Shown here piece after piece: positions 25,375-26,716 of a stretch of DNA of 64,000 nucleotides. Source of the stretch: a virus. The notes below the pieces were generated by a model. That model was given only the letters and a program-made list of their open reading frames with translations, searched no databases and had not been told where the DNA came from. Where the stretch lies: IMG/VR virus record IMGVR_UViG_3300027858_000541; one strand, 5' to 3'. Every line of letters starts with the position of its first letter. Positions within the stretch are counted from its first letter, which is position 1. The position numbers were made by a program, and so were the translations under genes.

Positions 25375-26716
25375 ATTAACATAAAACAGGTTGTTATTCA
25401 AAATGAAAAGCTTGTATTTATAACCGCATTACTATTAATTTAAATAGAACATAAGTTATTTAAAGCGTGATACTGTTAGACCTCACCTATTAAGATTAAA
25501 CAAGCTGTTATTTAAAATGCATTCCAGTTTTAGAGTTCGCCAATTAAGCTTAAACAAGTTGTTATTTAAATTATAGTATAGTGTTACCACGCCTTTTAAC
25601 GATAAAACAAACTGTTATTTTAAAATGAATGTAAATGCATGGTGTACAACATACCTATTAGGATTAAACAATCTGTTATTTAAAATACCCTTCCATTAGT
25701 ACATTTAAAATTAAGTTAGAACTAATCGTTATTGAAATCATCTTGCTTTACTCTAAAGCACAAATTTAAGCTAGAACCTTTGTTATTAAAATAGCATCAC
25801 CGAAATTTTCATTGTTAGAAGTTACAGTAGAACTTCAAGTTATTAAAAATCCTACACCTCCATAGGGTCATGTTAAGATAAAACAAGTTGTTATTTCAAT
25901 TACCTTCCAGTTTGAATACATTAACTTAAGATAGAACAAAAGTTATTTAAAATATATACGGATGGCATAAGCGCTTTTCGAGATAAATTTAAAATAGAAC
26001 TAATTGTTATTTCAATTACCAGCCATTGTACACTTGAACGACGTTAATTTAGATAGAACAAATGTTATTTAAAATACAGACTTATGGAGTAAGTACTCTT
26101 CAAAATAAGTTTAAAATAGAACGAGTTGTTATTTAAAACTATGCTACAATTCAGTGCTTTTAGCTGAGTATTTATTAATATAGAACCATAGGTTATTGAA
26201 ACTTTGTAGTCCTTTTTTTCTTTTGACAATTATGGTCGAACCACAGGTTATTAAAATTCAAGTGGCAATAAAACTTTTTTATCAAATAATTTAACGATAG
26301 TACAACATGTTATTCAAAGGATGAACCGATAAAACGCAAAATCTTATCATCTAATTAAAATGGAACCCACGAGTTATTTAAATGAACCGATAAAACTTAA
26401 AATCTTTTCGCCTAATTAAAATGGAACCCACGAGTTATTTTAAATTGGTAAATAAGGATGCTTCCAATACCTTTACCTTTTCAATCGGACAGATTGTTAT
26501 GTATAAGAAATAATAAAAATCAAAAACATTATTAAGATAGAACTAAGTGTTATTACAATTACCCATGGTTCCTAGAATACTTACGATTGAATAATCATTG
26601 TTCGAATTAGCCTATATGCTTACAGTCAAATTAAGATAGAACTTTAAGAGTTATTTAAAATATGCGCCCCCGGGTCTTAGAAAAATTAAAATAGAACAGT
26701 AATTTGTTATCGAAAA
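25375..26716 (+). CRISPR. Highly degenerate CRISPR-like array (23 clear repeats plus 1 very decayed) inside the cas operon
   Basis: Consensus TTAAGATAGAAC-N4-8-GTTATT(T)AAA(A)T, about 29-30 nt. GTTAT anchors at 25393, 25455, 25507, 25561, 25614, 25675, 25728, 25782, 25839, 25890, 25942, 26006, 26064, 26128, 26192, 26247, 26309, 26373, 26434, 26496, 26549, (26600), 26650, 26706. Some ends are canonical ATTGAAAT/ATTGAAAC. No ORFs in the region. Confidence 0.88.

Follow-up and report, generated by a model that had tools for sequence, protein, structure and literature searches.

The 64,000-nucleotide stretch of DNA analysed here (IMG/VR virus record IMGVR_UViG_3300027858_000541; hereafter the window) carries, inside a type I cas operon, a degenerate, leaderless CRISPR array of 24 repeats and 23 spacers (25375-26716, forward strand) in which short and long spacers are mixed. 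We propose, with a probability of roughly 0.4, that the short spacers arose by truncation at the PAM-distal end and that the shorter Cascade they load blocks the transcription of genes belonging to other elements or to the host. The suggestion of the earlier note that one array may encode both cutting and silencing guides survives in part: targets were found for long guides, and short spacers ending at 26 nt are seen again in a second plasmid lineage, but no target was found for any short guide.

The cas genes, all on the forward strand, are ordered cas6-cas8-cas7-array-cas5-cas3. Profiles identify Cas6 (22300-22971; PF01881, E 5e-9), Cas7 of the DevR family (24300-25334; PF01905, E 2.5e-39, and TIGR01875 over its cut-off) and Cas3 (27443-29536; a helicase followed by a C-terminal HD domain, TIGR01587 over its cut-off and PF18019). 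The large subunit (22965-24299) is called Cas8-like from structure matches only: the ESM Atlas places it with clusters of the Cas8b/Cst1/DevT type (TM 0.74-0.78), no Pfam or NCBIfam profile matches it, that of the Cas8b signature included, and a feature search returns a mixture of Csp2, CsaX and Cas8a1. The Cas5-like protein (26739-27389) has no profile match and is assigned by position, size and pairwise BLASTP (E 8e-8 to a gene between cas7 and cas1 on plasmid P2 of Deinococcus gobiensis). A type I, I-B-like effector set of Cas6, Cas7, Cas5 and Cas8 is present, Cas5 and Cas8 on weaker evidence, together with a Cas3 that joins a helicase with altered Walker A motif to an HD nuclease, and a 5' PAM was found in each setting: CCA or CCG in relatives, CCA or CCC on the Bacillus thuringiensis plasmid BTB_502p and TCA in the window. 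No cas1, cas2 or cas4 occurs among the proteins annotated in the window, no cas1 was found on BTB_502p or on the plasmid pJFP838A, and the array, which begins 40 nt after the cas7 stop codon, has no leader, relatives having one of 150-200 nt with an inverted repeat; the system is type I-B-like, with conserved cas genes but neither leader nor cas1. A candidate sigma-A-like promoter upstream of cas6 (22239-22267, forward strand; 10/12 consensus, extended -10), preceded by a terminator-like hairpin (22145-22171), probably drives both the cas operon and the array; it is a consensus match only, of a kind that occurs region-wide at chance level.

The Cas proteins are located on contigs of 482 and 523 kb, and the closest plasmid relatives are BTB_502p (B. 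thuringiensis Bt407) and pJFP838A (Clostridium perfringens); we infer that the replicon is a Bacillaceae megaplasmid of about 0.5 Mb. A full-length Rok homologue (32093-32854) has its best relative on a 739-kb contig of Bacillus sp. M6-12, which points to a Bacillaceae host; the M6-12 genome has no window-type Cas7. The window also encodes a UvrD-like helicase with a long N-terminal extension (4961-7741), shared at full length only with other Bacillota megaplasmids. On pJFP838A, a split interrupts cas3 before its HD domain is complete (L002, 3739-5870), and the surroundings of the cas genes yielded no array.

Parsing of the array gave repeats of 28-32 nt (n=24) and spacers whose boundaries, owing to repeat degeneracy, are good to 1-2 nt: a short group (n=12) of 20, 22, 22, 23, 23, 24, 24, 24, 24, 25, 25 and 26 nt, a middle group (n=2) of 28 and 29 nt, and a long group (n=9) of 31, 32, 33, 33, 33, 34, 35, 35 and 35 nt. 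The repeat-to-repeat periods, from 62 nt for the first to 56 nt for the last, are exactly those that the earlier note had listed (11 at 50-55, 3 at 56-58 and 9 at 61-64 nt), a very degenerate repeat at 26580-26607 splitting a 101-nt gap into periods of 51 and 50 nt. The array does not differ between three independent assemblies, which excludes an assembly artefact, and its orientation is fixed by the PAM-flanked targets. An 8-nt 3' handle pattern is retained in 19 of the 24 repeats; no stable hairpin is seen in the repeats. On the forward strand, a first cluster of short spacers (25466-25923) comprises S2 (25466-25488, 23 nt), S3 (25518-25542, 25 nt), S4 (25572-25595, 24 nt), S6 (25686-25709, 24 nt), S7 (25739-25763, 25 nt), S9 (25850-25871, 22 nt) and S10 (25901-25923, 23 nt), with S5 (32 nt) and S8 (28 nt) sitting inside it; a second (26507-26684) comprises S20 (24 nt), S21 (20 nt), S22 (22 nt) and S23 (24 nt), and S15 (26203-26228, 26 nt) stands alone within a block of long spacers. 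Tandem duplication produced the units of S17 (34 nt) and S18 (31 nt) (26320-26414, forward strand), in which the spacers have diverged and the repeats after them are still alike; no target was found for either. The sense strand of S1 (25404-25436) resembles a signal-peptide start, as does that of a 37-nt spacer of BTB_502p, and no PAM-flanked target was found for these two.

The earlier note's two length classes are suggestive only in the window array taken alone, where the dip test, an approximate implementation of our own, gives p 0.07-0.10, and where a two-component mixture (means of about 24 and 33 nt) is preferred over a single Gaussian by 4-6 BIC units, though not over a uniform distribution (n=23). 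They gain significance by replication on BTB_502p (NC_018878.1), which has no array at its cas genes (434-445 kb) and carries seven dispersed degenerate arrays of the same repeat type. When the classes defined on the window were tested on the 24 spacers of BTB_502p (18-37 nt, with a peak at 24-25 nt) against a uniform distribution, 11/24 fell within 22-26 nt (p 0.02) and 1/24 within 27-31 nt (p 0.009). The two sets pooled, with an effective sample size lowered by look-alike spacers, give a dip p of 0.03 and place 15/47 spacers at 24-25 nt. Since the Cas proteins of the window and of BTB_502p are only 32-47% identical and their spacers are unrelated, the plasmid is largely independent evidence. 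Its arrays are unannotated (25.7 kb, 194.3-194.7, 207.9-208.5, 210.5-210.8, 212.7 and 213.1-213.3 kb; L066-L068), and only the one at 25.7 kb has a leader-like stretch and identical repeats. A length ladder of 6 nt (23/29/35) is unsupported, its 29-30 step being nearly empty, and truncated repeats around full spacers do not explain the short units, since the repeats that follow the short spacers have their full length.

The short class is derived, because in related, mostly uniform-repeat arrays 96/98 spacers are 34-39 nt long, the long class of the window (31-35 nt) being itself slightly shorter. Spacers of these relatives match Bacillus and Geobacillus phages beside a 5' CCA or CCG PAM, which marks the family as an active defence system.

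Mapping the targets of the two classes separately, as the earlier note had recommended, was fruitful for one of them: among the spacers of the window and BTB_502p, PAM-flanked targets were found for 6/19 longer guides and for 0/28 guides of 26 nt or less, short queries being harder to detect. The targets of its long guides indicate that the window array is live. S11 (25953-25987, forward strand, 35 nt) matches plasmid Rep_3 initiator genes, antisense and beside a TCA PAM, at 23/26 leading nucleotides (all but 5, 6 and 12), and S13 (26075-26109, forward strand, 35 nt) is a codon-pattern variant of S11 that matches the same Rep_3 site more weakly (best 22-24/35 nt). In the reading frame that the PAM defines, both give the helix motif conserved in plasmid initiators of the Rep_3 type; a pattern made from the predicted motif matched 8/251 Bacillales genomes and none in a reversed control, and the three matches scanned were all Rep_3. 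Look-alike pairs (25953-26109 and 26320-26414 in the window, 208.1-208.3 kb on BTB_502p) are variants of one gene site and differ mainly at antisense-strand codon positions 1 and 3. Codon third positions fall at spacer nucleotides 3, 6, 9 and onward, so that Cascade's unpaired every-sixth bases lie on wobble positions; this hints at updating that does not need Cas1, or at selection for guides that are hard to escape.

For S19 (26445-26477, forward strand, 33 nt) the candidate target is the host gene gcvPA, at its start codon and ribosome-binding region: in two genomes the spacer matches 19/20 seed-side nucleotides beside a TCA PAM (mismatch at nucleotide 12) and, past a 2-nt bulge, another 10/11. 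The bit score alone is near chance, and because about 1 of about 18 chance matches should carry a valid PAM, gcvPA is only a candidate target; a search of 61 genomes from the family to which Bacillus sp. M6-12 belongs did not recover the match. We give S19 about even odds of being a host-silencing guide. On BTB_502p, two 33-nt spacers match prophage amidase (lysin) genes with a CCA or CCC PAM, one of them through its last base, and a further spacer, of 28 nt, matches beside a CCA PAM in three tyrosine recombinase genes, but through nucleotide 25 only, the one case in support of PAM-distal trimming. Every target site found for these two degenerate systems is antisense to a gene.

Searches with other designs were likewise negative. 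Neither a CreA-like match to the cas promoter or to the own replicon (64-kb window; BTB_502p) nor an excess of PAM-aware seed matches (64-kb window, whole BTB_502p, 1.6 Mb of a B. cereus-group chromosome) rose above shuffles; BLAST of the array, whole and in pieces, against INPHARED phages and PLSDB plasmids returned chance-level matches, and exact scans of IMG/VR with S6 and S11 found nothing. Degenerate scans gave numbers equal to chance expectation, namely two matches for S22 (sense strand, contigs of 50% GC) and one for S3 (antisense in a phage gene, 8 mismatches). Near matches of S6 to an SMI1/KNR4-like gene (22/24 nt), of S7 (23/25 nt) and of S5, S8, S15, S16 and S20 were rejected, all lacking a PAM.

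A function for the short guides is favoured indirectly, by their upper length edge, their base composition and their constancy between strains. The edge of 26 nt equals the published switch between cutting and silencing in I-B systems: in Parageobacillus thermoglucosidasius, guides of 26 nt or less lose cleavage and repress, whatever their position in the gene and most strongly when aimed at the template strand (PMC10551041), and in Haloarcula hispanica a 24-nt guide represses without cutting, a 28-nt one still cutting slightly (PMC10989794). C exceeds G in 12/12 short spacers of the window (67 vs 37, p 0.004), a bias like that of sequence antisense to genes, in spacers that are not independent because several resemble each other (S3/S10, S6/S9/S10, S21/S23); the coding strands of the window have the opposite skew (C 874 vs G 1201), and its long spacers and the pooled relatives have none. 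The skew is not significant in the short spacers of BTB_502p (C 66 vs G 58) and is also seen in one small uniform-repeat array (L020). In a second strain (dS about 0.10; dN 0.005-0.014 in cas5 and cas3), six end spacers are shared, five of them short, with lengths exactly unchanged and seven substitutions, all in short spacers, four of which change no amino acid when read antisense in the PAM-defined frame (p 0.17, weak); between the strains the array diverges by about 3-5%, at least as much as adjacent intergenic DNA.

With no cas1, cas2 or cas4 nearby and no leader, the array amounts to a fixed guide set, which would change by point mutation, deletion and unit duplication only. Guides that were ancestrally 35-37 nt, as the relatives show, would have been shortened in about half of the cases, most to 22-26 nt and probably by loss of the PAM-distal end, corresponding to a predicted Cascade with about two Cas7 steps fewer. 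By analogy with other I-B systems, the short crRNAs would load Cascade and bind without recruiting Cas3, so that transcription of the target would be blocked; long guides would be directed at conserved genes of rival mobile elements, here the plasmid Rep_3 initiators found as targets; and intermediate lengths would be rare because they cut poorly and yet are not safe. Anatomy, spacer lengths, their replication, the PAM and the targets of long guides are observed; crRNA processing, Cas7 number, silencing and selection against lengths of 27-31 nt are the steps that we infer. A more ambitious version, which we hold to be doubtful as a whole, is that Bacillus megaplasmids carry long natural, length-programmed arrays. 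Full-length guides would destroy rival plasmids and phages; guides trimmed to some 24 nt, or carrying a bulge past nucleotide 20, would silence genes in the host or in co-resident elements; and duplication of units together with codon-tracking substitution would retune the set, with no need for Cas1.

It is quite possible, if somewhat unlikely, that the array is instead the product of acquisition-less decay, the short spacers having lost 10-12 nt by length-biased deletion, multiplied by unit duplication and become dead or feeble passengers among a few useful long guides. Short spacers do track repeat decay, with none in uniform arrays, a few of 23-31 nt in the partly decayed L004 and L007, and about half in the window and BTB_502p, and no spacer exceeds the ancestral length; but five geometric-deletion models of erosion, simple ones, never gave both a peak and a gap (0/400 each), and the peak at 24-25 nt and the gap at 27-31 nt occur in two distant lineages and across seven arrays of BTB_502p. 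Decay would also account for the lack of targets for short spacers, for the look-alikes among them and for the clustering of length classes along the window array (runs test p 0.05), whereas it does not lead one to expect stable lengths between strains or the strand skew of the window.

Silencing by short guides must also be set beside a change in Cas3. In SF2 helicases, loss of the Walker A threonine should impair ATP use, and in the window Cas3 this residue is phenylalanine in both strains, the HD ligands being present. The substitution is unique to the window lineage among the relatives aligned, threonine being intact in 11/11 more distant ones, BTB_502p included. From this change, long guides in the window lineage may nick or only bind: its Cas3 motor may be weak, leaving them to nick or silence but not to shred. 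Since the threonine is lost and S19, the best candidate for a silencing guide, is long and partly matching, spacer length may not correspond one-to-one to cutting and silencing here, and a clean cut-versus-silence model is a better fit to BTB_502p than to the window locus. The Walker A change and the short class do not go together, BTB_502p having short spacers and GKT. We consider it unlikely that length is simply tolerated without a switch, all guides mainly binding and silencing as in type IV-A, with Cas3 translocation impaired and long guides pairing over 20-26 nt only, so that trimming removes just unused PAM-distal sequence. The conserved substitution in both strains, a long guide that may target a host gene start, and the fading of the S11 and S19 matches after nucleotides 26 and 20 fit this idea, although distal mismatch is expected anyway in targets from other species. 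Against it, a dN/dS of about 0.05 indicates strong purifying selection on cas3, whose HD ligands are intact, and on BTB_502p the length pattern recurs although Walker A is normal there and a 33-nt lysin guide matches to the final base. That the short units are target-less crRNA mimics, absorbing host or plasmid Cas proteins (Racr-like) or tuning active Cascade, is improbable: degenerate repeats with kept handles, absence of targets, resemblance to solitary repeat units and the scattering of BTB_502p mini-arrays far from cas genes would suit decoys, but the plasmid has its own matching Cascade and Cas3, the short units are co-transcribed with functional guides, and a decoy needs no strand skew.

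The system resembles engineered I-B repression with truncated spacers (PMC10551041; PMC10989794) in subtype group, in the window of 26 nt or less, and in combining cutting and silencing guides with Cas3 present; it differs in being a natural mixture in one plasmid array, and repression here is only proposed. With the crlRNA/CreA/CreR mini-arrays and Cracr arrays (bioRxiv 10.1101/2023.03.03.530964; 10.1101/2024.10.29.618823) it shares degenerate repeats, short or partial spacers and multiplexed units carried by mobile elements. The crlRNA and Cracr arrays described have 1-3 spacers, target cas or toxin promoters and use host Cas proteins, whereas the window array, with 23 spacers, lies within a cas operon of its own, and the targets identified are in the coding regions of other elements. 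Despite its degenerate repeats with short spacers, the window system is not CreA or CreR, no PAM-proximal match to a cas or toxin promoter having risen above shuffles in the window or on BTB_502p. Like type IV-A (PMC12669027) it is plasmid-borne, lacks adaptation genes, has anti-plasmid guides and is likely to silence, but unlike type IV-A it has a Cas8-like protein, an HD-bearing Cas3 and two spacer lengths and no Csf1 or DinG; unlike the Tn7-linked CAST of type I-B2 it has Cas3, and no transposon genes lie beside the locus. Uniform-repeat members of the family (Anoxybacillus tepidamans L005, Paeniclostridium L012, Clostridiaceae L013) share its cas genes, C-terminal-HD Cas3, 29-nt repeat, locus without cas1 and CC-type PAM, and differ in their near-identical repeats, spacers of 34-39 nt, GKT Walker A, leader (seen in L004 and L005) and near-perfect phage matches on either strand. 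The literature searched yielded no paper on CRISPR in BTB_502p or on the I-B-like variant of the window.

Length-switched cutting and silencing is already known as a laboratory trick and from regulatory units of 1-3 spacers. If the proposed silencing by short guides is true, natural long mixed arrays on two distant plasmid lineages would mean that evolution has used the length switch at scale, and arrays that look decayed could be curated regulatory programs; BTB_502p in the laboratory strain Bt407 offers a direct test bed for the switch.

Several relatives of the locus have features of their own. A 517-kb contig (L004, 1-16563) holds two complete tandem copies of the CRISPR system, each with its own repeat type; a small ORF is inserted in one array, and one spacer is present twice. 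In L007 (11000-13130) genes inserted between cas7 and cas5 interrupt a decaying array, and in L059 (3315-3961) the decaying array is reduced to a few barely visible repeats. On BTB_502p, iteron-like direct repeats adjoining a reverse-strand gene (L001, 15570-16170) are not CRISPR and may be a replication origin.
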